Shown piece by piece: positions 9,956-17,394 of a stretch of DNA of 64,000 nucleotides. Positions within the stretch are counted from its first letter, which is position 1. Every line of letters begins with the position of its first letter. The notes under the pieces are model-generated. The model was not told the DNA's origin. It saw only the letters and a program-made list of their open reading frames with translations, and searched no databases. Both the position numbers and the translations under genes were made by a program. Source of the stretch: Candidatus Multivorans sp. (lineage in GTDB: Bacteria; Acidobacteriota; Thermoanaerobaculia; Multivoradales; Multivoraceae); the NCBI GenBank assembly GCA_965224025.1, contig OZ245033.1:4032001-4096000 (forward strand), in the 5' to 3' direction.

Positions 9956-10779
9956 GTCCGGGAACTCGCGCCGCGATCGAGCGCTACGGCTTCGCGTTTC
10001 GCGGAGTGGCCGGCGCTGCGTCAATCTTCCGCAGAGCACTCTTCTATGTTGAAGAAAACAGCCCAAGCGAGAACCGAGCGCCCATCGTCGAAGTGCGCGG
10101 GCGCTGAGTATTTGAACGTATTTCCGTGCTCGTCGTCGTGCGCGAGCTCGTCGGTGTAGTCCAGTTCCACCTCGGCCAGTCCGACCGAAGCCAACGAGAC
10201 CAGTTCGCCTGTGTCGGTCCTTCCATCTCTGTCCGCATCCAACCACAGCCTCAAGGACCCGTAGATCTCGTCGCTCGCGTTGAGTCTGCCGTCATCGTTG
10301 CCGCCGTTCAACGGGTCGTCGAACATCCTCAGCGCCTGGAAGCCGTTTGGGGTGCGGCTCGGCTGTTGGGGTGAGACGTGACTGAACAGCTCTCGTCCGT
10401 CGTCAATCAGCCCGTTGCCGTTCCGGTCCAGGACGAGAAACGCATCGTCCTTGCCCGCAGTCCACGGTATCTGCTCGGTCTTGCCGTCACCGTTCAGATC
10501 AAACCCGACTCCGCCCTTGGTGCCGGTCAACTCGTAGTGGCTATCCTCGGTCGAGATGATCAAGGGGTCCTCCAGGCACTCCCAGAAGTCGATGTCGCAA
10601 TTGAGACAGAACGACCTCCTGATCCAGTAGGTCTGAGTACAGTTGAAAGCAATGGGAGGCACGAACAGGTAACCCCACCCATCTGCCCCCTTGTTCGAAA
10701 CGTGTCACCGAACGTAATCAGTTGATTAGCTGGCACGTATGGACAACCTTGCCAAACGGGAGGAAGATAGGGGATTTCT

Positions 10780-12277
10780 GCCTCTTTCGAGTTGCGAGTG
10801 GGTAGGGCGCGGGCGAGTGCAGATGCTGAGGGGGTCTTGGGATAGCGGCCTCCGCCGCCGTAGCCGCCGCCGTCGGGCTGTGGAATCTGCGGAAGACCGG
10901 TAGCGGCGAGGGCGCAAGCTGTCCGGTGGGGAGGGCGTTCGCGGCGATTTCGGGTGGCGGCTGTAGTCGCGGGCGATCGGAATGAGCAAGACTCGTCTCT
11001 CCTGTTCCGACTGAAGGAGGACGAGAGATGCAGAGGGAATTGTTCGCGAGAGCGCTGGGCGTGTCGGCGCCGTGGTTCGTTGACGGCGTGGACTTCTGTG
11101 AGAGGGAGCGTCGGTTGACGATACGGATCGACTTCAGGAAGGGCAGCCGATTCGCCCACGAGGGGGACGGCGGTTCTCATCCGGTGCACGACACGCAGAT
11201 CAAGCGCTATCGGCACCTCAACTTCTTCCAGCACGAGTGCCTGCTCGAGGCGCGAGTGCCCCGTGTGCGACTCCCCGACCAGCGGGTGGCGTTGGTGACT
11301 CCGCCCTGGTCGGGCAGATTGTCCGGCTTCACGCTGCTGTTCGAAGCCTTGATTCTGGCCATGTGCCGAGACATGACCTTCGCTGCGGTGGCCCGGTTGA
11401 CCGGGGTGTCGTGGCATCGGGTGCACGCGATCTGCAAGCGCTACGTCGAGCTGGCGGTCGACCGGGACGACCTCTCCGAACTGCGCCACGTGGCCATTGA
11501 CGAGACTTCCCGCGCCAAGGGGCACGACTACGTGACCGCGGTCGCCGACAGCGAGCGCCGGCGCGTGGTGTTCCTCGCCGAGGGACGCAAGTCCGGCACG
11601 ATCGAGGAGTTCGCCGACGATCTGCAAAGGCGCGGCGGCGATCCCGCCGCGATCAGCCGGGCGTCCATCGACATGTCGGCCGCCTTCCTCAAGGGCGTCG
11701 CCGAGAATCTCCCCAACGCCGAGGTGACCCTCGACAAGTTCCACGTCATGGCCCTGGCCTCGAAGGCGGTGGACGAGACCCGGCGCCTCGAACAGCGCCT
11801 CGATCCGTCGCTGAAGGGCCTGCGCTGGACGCTGCTCAAGAACCGCGACTCCCTGACGCCGGCCCAACGGGCCGACCTCGACCGCTTCGTCAAGAGGGTC
11901 GCCAGCCGACGCACCGCACGCGCCTGGCTCTATCGGGAGCAACTCCGCGAAATTCTCAACCGCAAGCAGATCAACGTCGTGCTGCGAATGCTCCATCAGT
12001 GGTGCACCAACGTGAACCGCTCCAAGGTCGAACCCATGAAGGCCGTCGCCCGCACCATCCGAAAGCACCTGCAAGCGATCGCTGCCTGGGCGCGAACCCG
12101 GCAGACCAACGGCTTCCTCGAAGCCCTCAACGGACTCTTCCAGTCCGCCAAACGCAAGGCCAGAGGCTACAAGCGATTCGACACCATACGCATCGCCTTC
12201 TTCCTCATCGCCGGCAAACTCGACTTCCACACGCTCAACCCGCACACCGCTTGACCCACTCGCAATTCAAAAGAGCC
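10780..12277 (+). mobile_element. ISL3-family insertion sequence (1498 bp)
   Basis: 24-bp imperfect terminal IRs (10780-10803 / 12254-12277, 21/24 match); 8-bp direct repeat GGATTTCT at 10772-10779 and 12278-12285. Confidence 0.95.
11028..12254 (+). CDS. ISL3-family transposase
   Basis: YRHLNFFQHEC, VAIDETS, SIDMSAAF, LDKFHV, TNGFLEALNGLFQSAKRKARGY. Confidence 0.95.
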   Translation: MQRELFARALGVSAPWFVDGVDFCERERRLTIRIDFRKGSRFAHEGDGGSHPVHDTQIKRYRHLNFFQHECLLEARVPRVRLPDQRVALVTPPWSGRLSGFTLLFEALILAMCRDMTFAAVARLTGVSWHRVHAICKRYVELAVDRDDLSELRHVAIDETSRAKGHDYVTAVADSERRRVVFLAEGRKSGTIEEFADDLQRRGGDPAAISRASIDMSAAFLKGVAENLPNAEVTLDKFHVMALASKAVDETRRLEQRLDPSLKGLRWTLLKNRDSLTPAQRADLDRFVKRVASRRTARAWLYREQLREILNRKQINVVLRMLHQWCTNVNRSKVEPMKAVARTIRKHLQAIAAWARTRQTNGFLEALNGLFQSAKRKARGYKRFDTIRIAFFLIAGKLDFHTLNPHTA

Positions 12278-12616
12278 GGATTTCTTCTACTAAATCGAGA
12301 CAGTGTCCCCTCGTCGTGTGGTCATGCTGGTGTGTGGTGGTGTAGCAAAGAGGATTGCACTCCACGTTCCATATTCTGGTCGTGCTTCCCGGAGTCGGAC
12401 ATGCCCAAGGCGTCGGGATGTCATGAAGCAGCGCTCCAAATGCACAAATGCCCCACCCAATGCGCCCAACGGTGTCCCCAACGCCGGCCGTAGGCGATCC
12501 GACAGGCTTGGGGTCAACGTCCGTACCGACCTGTGCGCCGACAGGGCCCATGGCCCACGCCGTTGTGGCGACCAGAAGAAGGAAGAACGGCCTGTGTCTT
12601 GGTGTGATCGCGACTC

Positions 12617-13657
12617 TCATTGTTCAAGGAACCGAGACGCGAGGCCGTCAATCTCAGCCCGGAGCGACGCTGGCATGTTGTCCCTCAGCAAATCCAGTTC
12701 CGCTTCGTAGGCCGGTCTTGCATCGTCGATGGCTGATCGCAGCATCTCAGGGCGACTACCGCTGATCGTTCTCAGAAGATCGACGAACTCCGGCGCGCGG
12801 CGCCTTGTCGCCCCGAGGCCCAACTCTTCCAGCTCCGGCGGCGACGCCCTGCGCACGACGACGCTGAGCAGCGACTGCAGCCACTGCTGGGTCAAGATGG
12901 AGTCCTGTTGACGCTGAGAATCCAGGAGGGTGATCGGTCCCGGTCCATCCAGTATGGCCGCGGCAACCGCCTGTTGCTCCCGACCCAGAGAGTTCAGGCT
13001 GTCCTCAAGAAGCTGGTCCAACGCTCCGGCCCGCTCCGCTGAAGCGACTCGGCCCAACAACCTGGACAACGCTGCCGCTCTCGCGTAGCGATCGAGCACG
13101 AAACCGAGAACGTCGCGTACGTCCCGCCCAGCAACAGTTCCGTCGTCGAGCACAACTGCTCCAACCTCTACACCTACGACCGAGTAGTTCCCTCGCGTGT
13201 CGCCGGAAGCGTCCGGTTGCTGCACGACCGGCAGGTCATGTTCAACGAACCGAGTTTCGTTCGGGCGCAGCGGGGAGTACTCGGTGGGCGCGTTCGGCGC
13301 CAGTAGCCCCGTGTACTTGTCCACTGCGAAACTGGAAACGCGGGCGGCCCCCGAATCAGAGCCAGCCACGAGATCAAGAGACCAGGCGGTAATCGTCCTC
13401 TGACTTCCGTTGCGGAGTGTCACCTGAACCTTGTCCTGGGGCGTCACGAAGACATCGTCGACCAAGAGAGCTTCCTCGGCGAGCACAGGCGCCACCGAAA
13501 TCGGGTTCGATGCGTACTGCGCCTCAATGAGAGCAGGCAGGCTCCTTAGTGGGACGGGTACGACGCTGTCTGGGTCTTGGGCGTTGGCCAACAGGGCCAC
13601 CAGCGCCAACGGCGCCAGCAGCCCAAGGCTGACCAGGTTCCGATTCATGTGTGTCAC
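12617..13657 (-). CDS. Secreted hypothetical protein, translationally coupled to the Cys-rich/SPM gene
   Basis: AGGAG RBS; signal peptide MNRNLVSLGLLAPLALVALLANA; Ig-like stretch VQVTLRNGSQRTITAW; stop overlaps next start (ATGA 12617-12620). Confidence 0.75.
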   Translation of the reverse strand: MTHMNRNLVSLGLLAPLALVALLANAQDPDSVVPVPLRSLPALIEAQYASNPISVAPVLAEEALLVDDVFVTPQDKVQVTLRNGSQRTITAWSLDLVAGSDSGAARVSSFAVDKYTGLLAPNAPTEYSPLRPNETRFVEHDLPVVQQPDASGDTRGNYSVVGVEVGAVVLDDGTVAGRDVRDVLGFVLDRYARAAALSRLLGRVASAERAGALDQLLEDSLNSLGREQQAVAAAILDGPGPITLLDSQRQQDSILTQQWLQSLLSVVVRRASPPELEELGLGATRRRAPEFVDLLRTISGSRPEMLRSAIDDARPAYEAELDLLRDNMPASLRAEIDGLASRFLEQ

Positions 13658-13681
13658 TTTTTCTCCTATGTGTTGTTCGTC

Positions 13682-13821
13682 ATGCTCCTAGCGTTTCGGA
13701 AATGCTCCTAGCGTTTCGGACAGGAATCATGCTAGCAGCCTTCAGCTCCTACGGACACGTCCGGGCGAAACGAGAATCGGACAGGAGGCGACTCGAATCG
13801 GACATCAGCGAACCGGAACCC
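13682..13821 (-). promoter_or_regulatory. Putative activator-dependent promoter with direct repeats (copy A)
   Basis: 19-bp tandem repeat ATGCTCCTAGCGTTTCGGA (13682, 13702); GAATCGGACA repeated at 21-bp period (13774, 13795); minus-strand -10 TAGCAT at 13729-13734; homologous to 16540-16669. Confidence 0.6.
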
Positions 13822-13930
13822 CACGCAGACTCTTGCGATCCCCGCCAGCCTCAGACGCGCTCCCGTTACCTGACTCTGGTAACGTCAACGGTTCCGCTTA
13901 GCGTACGTCGAGAGAAGAAGACGCTGTCCC

Positions 13931-15004
13931 ATGTCATCTGCACCGTCCGACCAACCCGTCTGGCTCTGGTGGAGCGGCGGCAAGGACTCGGCGTGGGTGC
14001 TCCACACGCTACGGAACGACCCGAAGTGGGAGGTGCGTGGGCTCGTCGCACTCGTCAATCGGAAGAACGGCCGGGTGACCATGCACGGAGTCCGTCGCCG
14101 CTTGATCGAGCGTCAGGCAGCCGCGGTCGGCCTGCCGCTCAAGCTGATCCAGTTCGACTGGACAGCCTCCGCGAACGACCACGACACGGCCATAGGGGCG
14201 GGCCTCCTCCGTTTGTGTCAGGACGATAACGCCGAGTTCGTCGCGTTCAGCGAGCTTGGCTCACCCCGGGCCGTGGAACGCCGGTCGGCGCTTCTCGGCA
14301 GCATCGGACTCCACCCTGTGTTCCCGTTGTGGGGCCGTGACCCGGCCGACCACGCCGCGGAGATCCTGAGGGCCGGATTGAAGGCCAGGGCGTGTTCCGT
14401 GGAGACGGACCGATTGCCGGCTGACCGCGCGGGCTGCCGCTTCGACGAGGACTTCGTGGCGAGGCTGCCCCGAGGCGTCGACCCGTGCGGCGAGAACGGC
14501 GAGTTTCACACGTTCGTCGAATGGGCTCCCGGATGGCCGTCGCGGGTCCCGACGGTCTCCGGTGGCAGGATCGAGTGCTACGGCTTCGGCTTCGCGGAGA
14601 TTGAGGAGTCCGCTCGGCAACCGAAGGAGGAGGCAGCCCGCCACCCAACTGCCGGCAACGACCCGTTCGACTACTACGCCAGGCTTCGGCGGGTTCGCGA
14701 GCACGTCGATCAGCATCTCAGGGAGCCTCTCGACCTGACCACACTGGCGCCCGTCGCGGCGATGAGTGCCGGGGGGTTCGGGAGGTTCTTTCGCGAAGCC
14801 ACCGGGCAGTCACTCCACGATTGGGTGGTCGGTCGTCGCCTCGAGCGAGCCGTCATCCCCCTCCGCGACCACAACGAACCGATCGGTCGAGTGGCCGAGG
14901 CCGTCGGTTTCGGCTCTGAACGAACGTTCCGCAGGCTGTTCCAGGGGCGATTCGGCTGTACTCCGTCCCGGTTCCGGTCAGAAGTACGGGGTGGACGCGG
15001 CTGA
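13931..15004 (+). CDS. PP-loop ATPase (diphthine-ammonia ligase/Dph6-like) fused to C-terminal AraC HTH domain
   Basis: WSGGKDS PP-loop, MHGVR, PVFPLWG, GVDPCGENGEFHTFV, then LRRVREHVDQHLREPL..LA..AAMS..FGRFFREATG..IGRVAEAVGFGSERTFRRLF..FGCTPSRFR. Confidence 0.88.
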   Translation: MSSAPSDQPVWLWWSGGKDSAWVLHTLRNDPKWEVRGLVALVNRKNGRVTMHGVRRRLIERQAAAVGLPLKLIQFDWTASANDHDTAIGAGLLRLCQDDNAEFVAFSELGSPRAVERRSALLGSIGLHPVFPLWGRDPADHAAEILRAGLKARACSVETDRLPADRAGCRFDEDFVARLPRGVDPCGENGEFHTFVEWAPGWPSRVPTVSGGRIECYGFGFAEIEESARQPKEEAARHPTAGNDPFDYYARLRRVREHVDQHLREPLDLTTLAPVAAMSAGGFGRFFREATGQSLHDWVVGRRLERAVIPLRDHNEPIGRVAEAVGFGSERTFRRLFQGRFGCTPSRFRSEVRGGRG

Positions 15005-15260
15005 TCTCCTCGGCCTGCCACGCCACCGCCCAGCAAGGCCGCAACCACGTCCTCGACCGACAACGCCCTCCGGCTCGCCGCGGATCAGCAAGCAGTGACA
15101 CTCCTTCGCAGCCGGGCCTCTGCGCTTCCCGCATCCAACGCTCTGGTGGTGGGGGCGGAGGTGCCCGACTTGCCAACGCCCTGCGAAAGGTTGACGGGCC
15201 GGGGCGTGCGCAACCAGCCAAGAGCACCGCTCGCCGGTTCCGCGATCTCGTTCTATCGCA

Positions 15261-16348
15261 TCAGGGGCAGAGGATTTCGCCGCGGCAGCACCGGGGCTCG
15301 ACTTCCGCCTGTTGTTCTACCTTCATCGTCGTACCGGTGACCGCCACGACCGCGTAGACGATCAGTCGGTGGTCGTGGCCGCCCTCCACCATCGCCGAAC
15401 TCAATAGCCGCTCGAGCGACGCGGTCGGCACATCCTGTTCGCTCCACAGAACCTCGGCCTCGCGGTCAAGGCCCAGAGAGTCGCGGATGTCCAGCGCGGC
15501 CACGAATCGCCACGTCTCGTCAGTCGGGATCGTGGGACCGTCGAGTCTGTTCGCCGCAGCCGACCGTGACGGCCCGTTCGGTCGATCGAAGCTGACCATC
15601 GGGCGGTGAAGGTTGAGACGTCGATGTCTCGCGACCTTGAGCGCCAACACGCGGTCGGGAGCGAATGCGCGGCGCGGCGTCGCGGTCTCGACGTTCTCGA
15701 GAGCTTCCGCGACTGCCGCGTGGTTGGACGATCCGACCGCCACGTACCGGTTGGTCAATCGATCCCGTTCCGCCACCACGTACTCGTTGACGAAGAAGCT
15801 CGAAATCGGCGTCAGACTGCCGGGTGGATCTCGGCCATGAAGCGAAGCACTAACTCCCGCATGGGGGCCGACCGTTCTTCAAGTTCGGCCTGCCGACGTC
15901 CCTGCTCGTCGTCCACTTGTGCGGCGAACCGGCTCAGCCGTCCGAGGCCATTCGGCGACAGACCGAACCGCCGAATCTCGTCCTCACGTTCGGCCACAAG
16001 GTCGCGACCCGTGGGTCCACGCTGTAACACGAAGTTGCGCCACAGTACGTGCCAGACCGGCACCAACTCGGGATTGGTCGTGCTGTTGACGAACTTGTCG
16101 GGTAAGAAACCGGGGCCGCAGTCGGGAGCCCGTCCGGCCGCTACCGCGACCCGGTAGGTTTCGCTGACAGCTTCCCGTTGGTGTCCGGCCCGCAGCTCTT
16201 CCGACGTGATGCGGTCCAGGACCGGCCACCACAGCGGCGAATCCGCGGGAGTGGTGGGGTCGGTGTATTGGCTGGCCGCTAGAGCGGGCCAGAAAGCGAT
16301 CATCGAGGCCGCGGCCCATCTGATCACGCCTACTCGCTGTCGACTCAT
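15261..16348 (-). pseudogene. Secreted hypothetical protein, probably one gene frameshifted near 15822
   Basis: GGAGG RBS before ATG 16348, signal peptide MSRQRVGVIRWAAASMIAFWPALAAS; 15261-15779 frame is open upstream to the CACCCGGC run (GSLTPISSFFVNEYVV). Confidence 0.55.
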
Positions 16349-16539
16349 TCGTCGTCCTCCCTGTTGGTTGGTGTCCACAAGAACGGGGCAACTCCAGTGT
16401 GGCCAAGTTTCGGTTCATGTGTGTCCCGCGCGACTCGCCTTCCACGTCGCATTCCGTGGAATACGTCGAGCTGCGGCGCCGGGAGCATCAATCCCGCCCG
16501 GCGGCTCGCCGCACCCTCTACGGCTTTCCTTGCTGCGTC

Positions 16540-16669
16540 TCGTTCATGAATGCTCCGGCGCCTCCGACTGCAGCCACGTTAGCGCGCCTTCCGGGCCCAT
16601 AGACATGCTCGGGCGGAACAAGAAACGGGAAAGAGGCGACTCGAACCGGCCAACAGAGAACCGGAACCC
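16540..16669 (-). promoter_or_regulatory. Putative activator-dependent promoter (copy B, homolog of 13682-13821)
   Basis: 16611-16669 matches 13763-13821 at 49/59 nt by manual alignment; minus-strand -10 TAACGT at 16576-16581. Confidence 0.6.
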
Positions 16670-16684
16670 TCCCGGTAGCCTGAG

Positions 16685-16900
16685 TGTGTTGGCAACGCTC
16701 GGAAAGTGAGCCACCCAACGTTGGAAAGTGAGCCACCTCGGCCGTGTTGAGTGTACGCAAGTCTTCTCTCGTCGGTCTCCTTGAGTCAGTAACAGTAGCG
16801 GCTGCGGTACCTGTGGGAAACCGGTCTGCCGGTTTTTCAAGGCGGTGCGGGAAACGGTCTGCCGTTTTCCGCGGCGCCGGCAGCTTCCGCAGCCGGCCGC
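16685..16900. mobile_element. Orphan IS21-like terminal remnant
   Basis: TGT start followed by two GGAAAGTGAGCCACC repeats at 22-bp period (16701, 16723), then a palindrome-rich non-coding tract; no istA/istB nearby. Confidence 0.6.
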
Positions 16901-16934
16901 CGTTGCGGTCGTCTCGGGGGCAGCGGCGCGGCGG

Positions 16935-17225
16935 CCGCCGCACAGCAACGCCGCGATCACGTCGTCGGCCGGCACGCTCGCCTTCTCACCGCGAAACCCG
17001 GACAGCCGAAGGTAGGTGTCAGCCGCAGCCCGGTGAAAGCCCTCGGGCAGCCCCACCGCGGCCAACGTGTCGGCGATCTCTTCCATCTCGCCGGCGAAGC
17101 GCCATGCCTTCGGGGCCGTCGCGGACGACCTCACACTTCGCTTCTCCAATCCCGGCTGAGACCGCGCCCACTCCCCAAGCAGGCCGTCCTCGACGCCGTA
17201 GGCGCGCGCCGCGGCGCGAAGCGAG
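16935..17225 (-). pseudogene. 3' remnant of NAD(P)-dependent oxidoreductase (DUF1932-type C-terminus)
   Basis: ARAYGVEDGLLGEWARSQPGLEKR..APKAWRFAGEMEEIADTLAAVGLPEGFHRAAADTY. Confidence 0.7.
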
Positions 17226-17394
17226 TGGGTCGGATGAAGTCCAAGAACAGGTTGATCGTCGTTGTCTTTCCCGCTCCGTTCGGTCCCAGGAGGCCGAAGA
17301 TCTCTCCTTCGGCGATCTGGAAGTCGACACCGGTGACCGCCTTCGTTCCGTCGCCGAACACCTTCTTCAAGCCCCTTGCCTCGATCATTGGCAT
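17226..17394 (-). pseudogene. 5' remnant of ABC transporter ATP-binding protein
   Basis: MIEARGLKKVF..AVTGVDFQIAEGEIFGLLGPNGAGKTTTINLFLDFIRPT then abrupt junction; no Walker B or signature motif. Confidence 0.85.

Follow-up and report, generated by a model that had tools for sequence, protein, structure and literature searches.

The window analyzed here is a 64,000-nucleotide stretch of the genome of Candidatus Multivorans sp. (GenBank assembly GCA_965224025.1, contig OZ245033.1, positions 4,032,001 to 4,096,000). It contains a gene whose 357-residue product joins a PP-loop domain of the ATP-pyrophosphatase fold to an AraC/XylS DNA-binding domain. Our favored interpretation, in which we place moderate confidence, is that this protein is an AraC/XylS one-component regulator whose enzyme-derived PP-loop effector domain would be switched by an adenine nucleotide together with a small molecule bound in a rebuilt groove.

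Two Domains on One Polypeptide

The first-pass annotation of this DNA had described a continuous open reading frame (ORF) of 357 residues carrying SGGKDS and DPCGENGEFHTFV, and the sequence bears this out, with both motifs at the named places (Table 1). It had also placed a PP-loop (Dph6-like) ATPase domain and a complete double helix-turn-helix (HTH) AraC domain in this one frame, and Pfam detects both far beyond chance. PF01902 (Diphthami_syn_2, formerly ATP_bind_4/DUF71) matches residues 13-225 at an E value of 1.9e-23, scoring 83.6 bits (cut-off 23.2). In the C-terminal part, HTH_18 matches residues 272-350 with 61.1 bits against a cut-off of 33.6 (E 1.3e-16), and HTH_AraC scores 42.5 bits against a cut-off of 26.6. 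The features expected of PF01902 are present, namely the SGGxDS PP-loop, the HUP-class fold, and the C-terminal G-E-x-G-E-F/Y-x-T motif, which reads GENGEFHT. The C-terminal domain of about 100 residues contains the two HTH motifs that characterize AraC/XylS proteins. No signal peptide or membrane segment was seen by eye in either domain.

An AlphaFold2 model computed from 41 family sequences contains two well-folded domains and has a mean predicted local distance difference test score (pLDDT) of 89. Block means of pLDDT range from 81 to 97 over residues 11-230, and the C-terminal domain is modeled as seven helices at residues 245-354. The linker between them falls below 50 at residues 231-242, and paralogues carry insertions of up to about 50 residues in it. 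Foldseek pairs the N-terminal domain with the archaeal PH1257/PF0828 structures (2d13, 3rjz, 3rk0, 3rk1) at E values of 5e-14 to 5.5e-12 and target template modeling (TM) scores of 0.76-0.80. The C-terminal domain matches 3w6v, 2k9s, 3oio, 3lsg, 3mkl, 7w5w, and 3mn2 with target TM scores of 0.78-0.87. Its structural matches include the DNA-binding domains of AdpA, AraC, and SoxS, with MarA lower at 0.63-0.66. Foldseek and a sequence search of structures found no solved chain spanning both domains. An input domain and a DNA-binding output domain thus lie on one polypeptide, as in a one-component system. The fusion that the first-pass annotation proposed is genuine, with DNA binding as its predicted function.

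The Fusion Is Real and Conserved

The architecture is shared by many relatives. In a sequence search, the best 120 matches all have E <= 5e-76 and are mostly 330-430 residues long. Few of these 120 are named; those that are carry the title "helix-turn-helix domain-containing protein" and come from Acidobacteriota metagenome-assembled genomes. One JGI record is annotated as a diphthamide synthase/AraC-like protein, so the architecture exists in database annotation. Among 265 relatives gathered, a family hidden Markov model finds a near-complete N-terminal domain in 242, and 110 of those 242 also have the AraC domain. A maximum-likelihood tree of the N-terminal domain was built from 187 rows, comprising every second fused sequence (55/110) together with each of the 132 rows that lack an AraC match. 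A single clade, with a Shimodaira-Hasegawa-like approximate likelihood ratio test (SH-aLRT) value of 100, holds the 55 fused rows plus four others. Because all fused rows share this clade, and the four extra rows are frameshifted copies of fused genes, the tree fits a single origin of the AraC fusion, in or near the window's own genus.

The first-pass annotation had raised the concern that the fusion might be unique to this assembly or lack read support across 14600-14680, and neither proved to be so. Besides the 110 relatives with the same architecture, Logan contigs from two runs of a second study (X3 and X4; 5906 and 6129 nt) span 13926-15033 with 47-49 substitutions and no gap, and a contig piece from run X1 covers 14488-14680 with no differences. 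Because these contigs cover the junction, it does not depend on this assembly. Pairwise ratios of nonsynonymous to synonymous substitution rates (dN/dS) among six orthologues are 0.20-0.34 for the N-terminal domain, with the near-identical pair L007-L011 left out, and 0.12-0.30 for the HTH domain; those of the short linker range from 0.2 to 4.7. Purifying selection acts on both domains. It is therefore extremely unlikely that the gene is an assembly artefact, a recent deletion junction, or a pseudogene. Such a reading could appeal to the damaged surroundings, which include an ISL3 insertion, gene fragments, and duplicated promoter pieces, and to the frameshifted or truncated copies found among relatives. 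However, the frame is intact, the contigs of an independent study cross the junction, dN/dS is below 0.35 in both domains, and the junction sits in a linker that can be aligned across paralogues.

The PP-Loop Domain Belongs to the DUF71-B12 Type Rather Than to Dph6

The first-pass annotation called the N-terminal domain Dph6-like. The assignment to PF01902 stands, but the domain is not Dph6 in the strict sense. According to de Crecy-Lagard et al. (2012, PMC3541065), Dph6 proper has a strictly conserved EGGE/DxE188 motif, the bacterial "DUF71-B12" subgroup has ENGEF/YH188, and Bacteria lack the diphthamide modification, hence the Dph6 substrate. The window protein reads GENGEFHT, as in the DUF71-B12 subgroup, and places His193 at the Glu188 position of Dph6 (PMC3541065). 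With TIGR03679, the equivalog model of archaeal Dph6, it reaches 55.9 bits, where 197.3 are required. Since ENGEFH replaces EGGE/DxE and the TIGR03679 score is under its cut-off, the sensor domain is, as judged from its sequence, not Dph6 but a bacterial PF01902 domain of the DUF71-B12 type. What it shares with the diphthine-ammonia ligases (EC 6.3.1.14) Dph6, PF0828, and PH1257 is the fold and the residues that contact the ATP phosphates (PMC3541065).

The closest stand-alone relatives are 215-245 residues long and 35-43% identical. Like the DUF71-B12 subgroup as described in PMC3541065, the window protein has the ENGEFH motif, the PP-loop, and the equivalents of H52 and T194. It differs from this subgroup in its fused DNA-binding domain, in changed invariant residues (FSEL in the window protein, and Asp in 50% and Glu in 40% of the fused family at position 108), and in its genomic context. 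The first-pass annotation had taken bacterial members to be generally stand-alone, which does not always hold for the DUF71-B12 subgroup. Among 33 long relatives of the N-terminal domain, other fusions join it to a GNAT acetyltransferase (six, at either end), a 4'-phosphopantetheinyl transferase (one), DUF2284 (one), or Smr (one); the proteins are P0125, P0128, P0142, P0147, P0149, P0161, P0169, P0174, and P0213.

The kinship with this subgroup also raises the idea of a corrinoid (B12-related) sensor inherited from a DUF71-B12 ancestor. ENGEFH marks the subgroup predicted to act in pseudo-B12 salvage (PMC3541065), and a Peripla_BP_2 (BtuF-like) gene lies at 7 of 41 loci of the closest stand-alone relatives, at least four of these seven also having a TonB-dependent receptor; one group of stand-alone relatives adjoins MeaB. 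However, the salvage role is itself a prediction rather than a demonstrated function in that study, and no B12 transport or cbiB neighbor was found at 42 fused loci. The window's genome has no CobD/CbiB match, its single cobalamin riboswitch (C1:1873179) is far from all paralogues, and no Rfam element was found in the window. The B12 link of the fused family was dropped on these grounds, and we consider a corrinoid sensor very unlikely.

Nucleotide-Site Residues Are Kept and the Acceptor Side Is Probably Changed

Residue patterns were compared between 110 fused and 128 stand-alone N-terminal domains, leaving out the four frameshifted rows. Both groups keep W14, G17, K18, D19, H52, Q62, P132, W134, G168, D184, G187, E191, F192, H193, and T194. 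In the fused proteins K18 is conserved in 91%, D19 in 85%, H52 in 97%, H193 in 98%, and T194 in 100%, and G187, E191, H193, and T194 all reach 98-100%. According to PMC3541065, the equivalents of the PP-loop, H52, G187, G190, E191, F192, and T194 either touch the phosphates of ATP in PF0828, a relative of solved structure, or are conserved in both DUF71 subfamilies. The fused proteins keep the phosphate contacts with the exception of G190, which is present in the window protein and in only 27% of the family, as compared to 98% of the stand-alone proteins. Position 15 is Ser in 46% and Thr in 45% of the fused proteins.

Other positions are relaxed. The first-pass annotation had noted FSEL where the family usually has FGD(L/I), and the comparison agrees: 57 of the 128 stand-alone proteins read FGDL and 36 read FGDI. 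Position 108 is Asp in 99% of the stand-alone proteins, whereas the fused proteins have Asp in 50%, Glu in 40%, and Asn in 7%. Position 107 is Gly in 93% of the stand-alone proteins versus Gly in 71% and Ser in 24% of the fused ones, and position 188, within the ENGEFH motif, is Glu in 100% versus Glu in only 60% and Gly in 33%. Y84, L111, D113, R115, and E119 are also relaxed. Residues 106-109 of the 110 fused proteins read FGDL in 42, FGEL in 20, FSEL in 19, and FGNL in 7; FSEL marks the window's own orthologue group. The fused proteins have in turn gained invariant residues: W22, R117, H141, C155, T159, E197, W198, A199, W202, and Y217. The window protein is among the more canonical members, with both SGGKDS and GENGEFHT complete.

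In a HMMER alignment, positions 48, 85, 113/114, 159, and 188 correspond to S44, E78, Y103/Q104, A149, and E183 of PF0828. A docking model places these PF0828 residues in the substrate groove (PMC3541065), so that the groove of the window protein is mapped here by inference from a published docking model and an alignment with about 23% identity. Retention of the nucleotide site together with an apparently rebuilt acceptor side is what would be expected of an enzyme turned into an effector module, or of one that has taken on a new substrate. The suggestion of the first-pass annotation that a degenerate enzyme may serve as the sensor fits this pattern of kept ATP-phosphate contacts and relaxed stand-alone invariants.

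The first-pass annotation had proposed a nucleotide- or adenylate-sensing regulator, and at the heart of that proposal is a sensor of nucleotide alone, which would bind only ATP, ADP, or AMP and report the adenylate charge or energy state with no second ligand. In its favor, the ATP-contact residues are the best-conserved part of the domain and several groove residues are relaxed. However, the strictly conserved new residues R117, C155, T159, E197-W198, and W202 lie at or beside groove-aligned positions, which suggests a specific new function at the groove. Six or more diverged paralogue clades are also hard to square with one ubiquitous nucleotide. We judge a nucleotide-only sensor to be improbable.

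A Genus-Restricted Family of Paralogues

The window's genome holds four full-length paralogues, one copy without the first 110 residues, and one HTH-only remnant. In a sample of the order (151 genomes), two-domain matches occur in 19 of the 20 genomes of the window's genus, with 1-10 matches per genome, and in none of the 131 genomes of other genera, two of which belong to the same family; 17 of these 131 have a match to the N-terminal domain only. In a sample of the phylum (301 genomes), the fusion is present in all six genomes of the genus, and 66 others have the N-terminal domain only. Fused forms also occur in public records titled Candidatus Multivorans, Thermoanaerobaculia, Holophagales, Vicinamibacteraceae, and "Acidobacteria bacterium." A tree of 38 full-length copies, built without four rows that contain stops or are truncated, separates at least six paralogue clades and depicts a genus-restricted expansion.

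In the window's genome, genes of the fused family contain every one of the six HTH_18 matches that pass the Pfam cut-off, and likewise each of the five PF01902 matches. The 16 HTH_18 matches in another five genomes of the genus are without exception full, truncated, or HTH-only members. The fused family accounts for all detectable AraC domains in the six genomes checked. A separate stand-alone homologue with 36-38% identity is present in eight other genomes of the genus. As to the origin of the DNA-binding domain, AraC domains from four genomes outside the genus, representing four genera (two in the same family and two in other families of the order), are uninformative, the nearest being only 31-40% identical.

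Degraded copies take several forms. The truncated copy in the window's genome (C1:213768-214511) adjoins an rve integrase gene. HTH-only remnants of 154-168 residues (C1:3670117-3670620 in the window's genome, and L103) keep the family-specific lead-in DPFxYFxRLxRVR to the DNA-binding domain. The copy in G422, the smallest genome of the genus (L102; G422:C1:1617400-1618800), has SGGAKS as its PP-loop, lacks the core from FPLWG to ENGEFH, and has an intact HTH. Many family members bear the precomputed label PF28410.1, an accession absent from the Pfam library used here.

These counts bear on whether the PP-loop domain might still be fully enzymatic, adenylating and perhaps amidating a substrate, with the enzyme-bound adenylate as the true effector or with the AraC domain merely autoregulating an enzyme. 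The fused family conserves the PP-loop, H52, E191, H193, and T194 at 85-100%, H193 stands where Dph6 has its predicted catalytic Glu (PMC3541065), and both canonical motifs are complete in the window protein. Moreover, because the window's genome has no stand-alone PF01902 gene, DUF71 activity there would need the fused copies. However, D108, E188, and G190, invariant in the stand-alone enzymes, are relaxed, 1-10 matches per genome would be unusual for a housekeeping enzyme, and truncated and HTH-only copies persist. Because eight genomes of the genus hold the stand-alone homologue, an enzyme role need not reside in the fusion. We regard such a catalytic or bifunctional enzyme-regulator as unlikely.

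A Candidate Operator in the Divergent Promoter

Orthologues of the regulator are 71-85% identical and lie downstream of groES-groEL. The gene transcribed divergently from them varies: it encodes a 346-residue protein, as in the window, at four loci and a CarboxypepD_reg-domain protein at another four. Between the two genes of the window lie three direct repeats, GAATCGGACA at 13774, GAATCGGACA at 13795, and GAACCGGAAC at 13810, with start-to-start distances of 21 and 15 nt. This core is the best-conserved intergenic block among eight genomes, even though the divergent partner gene differs. A degenerate pattern of the core finds nine sites, distributed over eight genomes out of 42 in the genus, and none with a reversed control. 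Seven of the nine are about 160-170 nt upstream of clade-A orthologues of the regulator, one is upstream of a truncated copy, and one is an extra copy in the window. The triple direct repeat is inferred to be the binding site of the regulator.

Other candidates were set aside. Two exact 19-nt copies at 13682-13720, with a start-to-start distance of 20 nt, are a 20-nt tandem duplication specific to this genome; they are absent from related loci and from the X3/X4 contigs and were rejected as an operator. A common operator for all paralogues was likewise rejected since the strict repeats occur only in the window's orthologue group. The intergenic region gave no signal of a structured leader RNA (z = +1.08), and no sigma-70 consensus promoter was found in 13500-15400.

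Proposed Mechanism

In the regulator that we favor, the PP-loop domain would still bind ATP or another adenine nucleotide, and the remodeled groove would bind a small molecule differing from that of the stand-alone enzymes. This ligand is probably a carboxylate because carboxylate adenylation is the predicted chemistry of the fold. The occupancy signal would pass through the flexible linker to the double HTH, which may bind the triple direct repeat in the divergent promoter, perhaps as a dimer formed through the N-terminal domains. The regulator would thereby control its own gene and a divergent gene whose product is probably secreted or located at the surface, namely the 346-residue protein here and the CarboxypepD_reg-domain protein in other genomes.

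Several observations weigh against this picture. G422 keeps only the copy with the deleted N-domain core, which is its sole AraC gene, so the sensor can be lost. The N-terminal domain has higher dN/dS (0.2-0.34) than the HTH. The groove mapping depends on a distant alignment and a docking model. A third of the fused proteins have Gly in place of E188 and 73% lack G190, a residue listed as conserved in both DUF71 subfamilies in PMC3541065; because these two are often lost, nucleotide handling may also have changed in some paralogues. As for the operator, the core pattern was derived from five of the sequences that it then matched, and its conservation could in part stem simply from how closely the genomes are related. 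The exact half-site pair is not enriched genome-wide (two observed versus about 0.7 expected). Strict 10-mer direct repeats with 20-22 nt spacing were not found upstream of the other paralogues, and the core is confined to one clade. Finally, neighboring genes differ between paralogue clades, with no common pathway.

A sensor that works through chemistry can also be envisaged, in which a paralogue-specific carboxylate would be adenylated and the acyl-adenylate, or an ATP-plus-ligand state, would switch the AraC domain. It would be the PP-loop counterpart of BirA-type catalytic sensing. We offer this version tentatively and with low confidence.

Other Features of the Locus

Table 1. Features of the regulator gene and its surroundings (window positions)
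Feature	Position	Strand	Basis
Whole gene, PP-loop/AraC one-component regulator (predicted), 357 residues, stop codon included	13931..15004	+	ORF, Pfam
N-terminal PP-loop ATP-pyrophosphatase-fold domain, residues 8-226, PF01902, bacterial DUF71-B12 type	13952..14608	+	Pfam, AlphaFold2, Foldseek
PP-loop motif SGGKDS, residues 15-20	13973..13990	+	Sequence
FSEL, residues 106-109, where stand-alone relatives read FGD(L/I)	14246..14257	+	Alignment of relatives
DPCGENGEFHTFV, residues 184-196, with the ENGEFH signature of the DUF71-B12 subgroup	14480..14518	+	Sequence; PMC3541065
Interdomain linker, residues 227-246, disordered, variable in length	14609..14668	+	pLDDT, paralogue alignment, dN/dS
C-terminal AraC/XylS double-HTH DNA-binding domain, residues 247-353	14669..14989	+	Pfam, AlphaFold2, Foldseek
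Divergent 346-residue gene, signal-peptide-like N-terminus, candidate target	12617..13657	-	ORF; no family match
Candidate operator, direct repeats GAAyCGGACA / GAAyCGGACA / GAACCGGrAC, about 110-160 nt upstream of the ATG	13774..13819	.	Conservation, 8 genomes
Extra copy of the repeat core, slightly degenerate, lying upstream of a minus-strand gene with only its first codons (MNRNL) in common with the 346-residue gene	16622..16667	.	Sequence

Neither Pfam nor NCBIfam gives a match over cut-off for the 346-residue protein, which falls only in unnamed Atlas clusters; in the CarboxypepD_reg partner, that domain alone is recognized. The 346-residue protein is 96-98% identical to its counterparts at two other loci (L088 and L093), where the adjacent regulator is only 83-85% identical. 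This high identity may reflect recent exchange or much stronger constraint. The second repeat core belongs to a longer segment, 16388-16669, that is a copy of the promoter core and first codons at about 75% identity and fronts an unrelated minus-strand gene pair (15261-15779 and 15812-16378). The genome contains only these two copies of the promoter core.

Beyond the divergent gene, an ISL3-family insertion at 10768-12289 (transposase 11028-12254; 36-nt inverted repeats 10768-10803 and 12254-12289) splits the next-but-one gene. That gene is intact in a relative (L007:5598-6593), where it encodes 331 residues with a Cys-rich N-terminus and Asp-rich, Ca-binding-like repeats. Downstream, the minus strand at 16547-17394 carries gene remnants, namely a DUF1932 fragment (profile positions 31-68 of 70) and an 87-residue ABC_tran fragment. 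A repeat of about 70 nt at 16687-16760 has at least seven further copies (82-97% identity) across contig C1 and may be a small mobile or repetitive extragenic palindrome (REP)-like element.

Among the 42 fused loci, one paralogue clade follows the trp operon and an SLT transglycosylase gene in a conserved gene order. Its downstream side carries a CarboxypepD_reg-domain protein followed by one to three tandem TIGR03436 "acidobact_VWFA" genes; the member in the window's genome is the paralogue at C2, 57558-58622. TIGR03436 neighbors occur at 13 of the 42 loci. Since only one paralogue in the window's genome has VWFA genes nearby, inherited synteny is an equally likely explanation, and TIGR03436 was rejected as a family-wide target.

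Relation to Known Systems and Significance

Only a limited set of sensor folds is known among AraC regulators, and the regulators with enzyme-derived N-terminal domains include Ada and GlxA/FtrA of the DJ-1/PfpI type. The window protein resembles these AraC/XylS regulators in its order of sensor, linker, and double HTH of about 100 residues, and in the direct-repeat candidate operator of its divergent promoter. Among NCBIfam models, its DNA-binding part matches FtrA best (residues 250-353, E 1.1e-17), at a score far below the cut-off of that model. The window protein differs in its sensor, which has a PP-loop (HUP-class) ATP-pyrophosphatase fold. In NadR and BirA, enzyme domains double as effector-sensing modules of DNA-binding proteins, and PutA is a further analogue of the bifunctional type. 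The likeness to NadR and BirA lies in a nucleotide-handling enzyme domain joined to an HTH, and by analogy its occupancy could set DNA binding. The folds, families, and domain order differ, BirA having a biotin-ligase fold and an N-terminal winged HTH. Direct-repeat binding is largely an AraC-family trait according to the abstract of PMC9723621. No description of a PP-loop sensor joined to an AraC domain was found in the literature searched, which left most subscription journals outside it, nor did any paper on the genus name turn up there. Enzyme-derived sensors on DNA-binding proteins are thus already known, and the new part, within that literature, is the PP-loop ATP-pyrophosphatase fold as an AraC sensor.

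The PP-loop/AraC fusion is a selected multi-paralogue family and not a one-off. The reach of the finding is bounded by organisms that are uncultured, a family confined to one genus in the genomes sampled, and candidate targets without an assigned function. The family would be a natural example of an enzyme that became a sensor, its nucleotide site retained and its acceptor groove remodeled. It may also provide an experimental handle on the bacterial DUF71 family, whose role was only predicted in 2012, because a reporter assay is easier than an enzyme assay. If sensing does work through chemistry, the entire AraC repertoire of one genus would operate in this way, and the inducers of the paralogues would reveal substrates of uncharacterized bacterial DUF71 enzymes.

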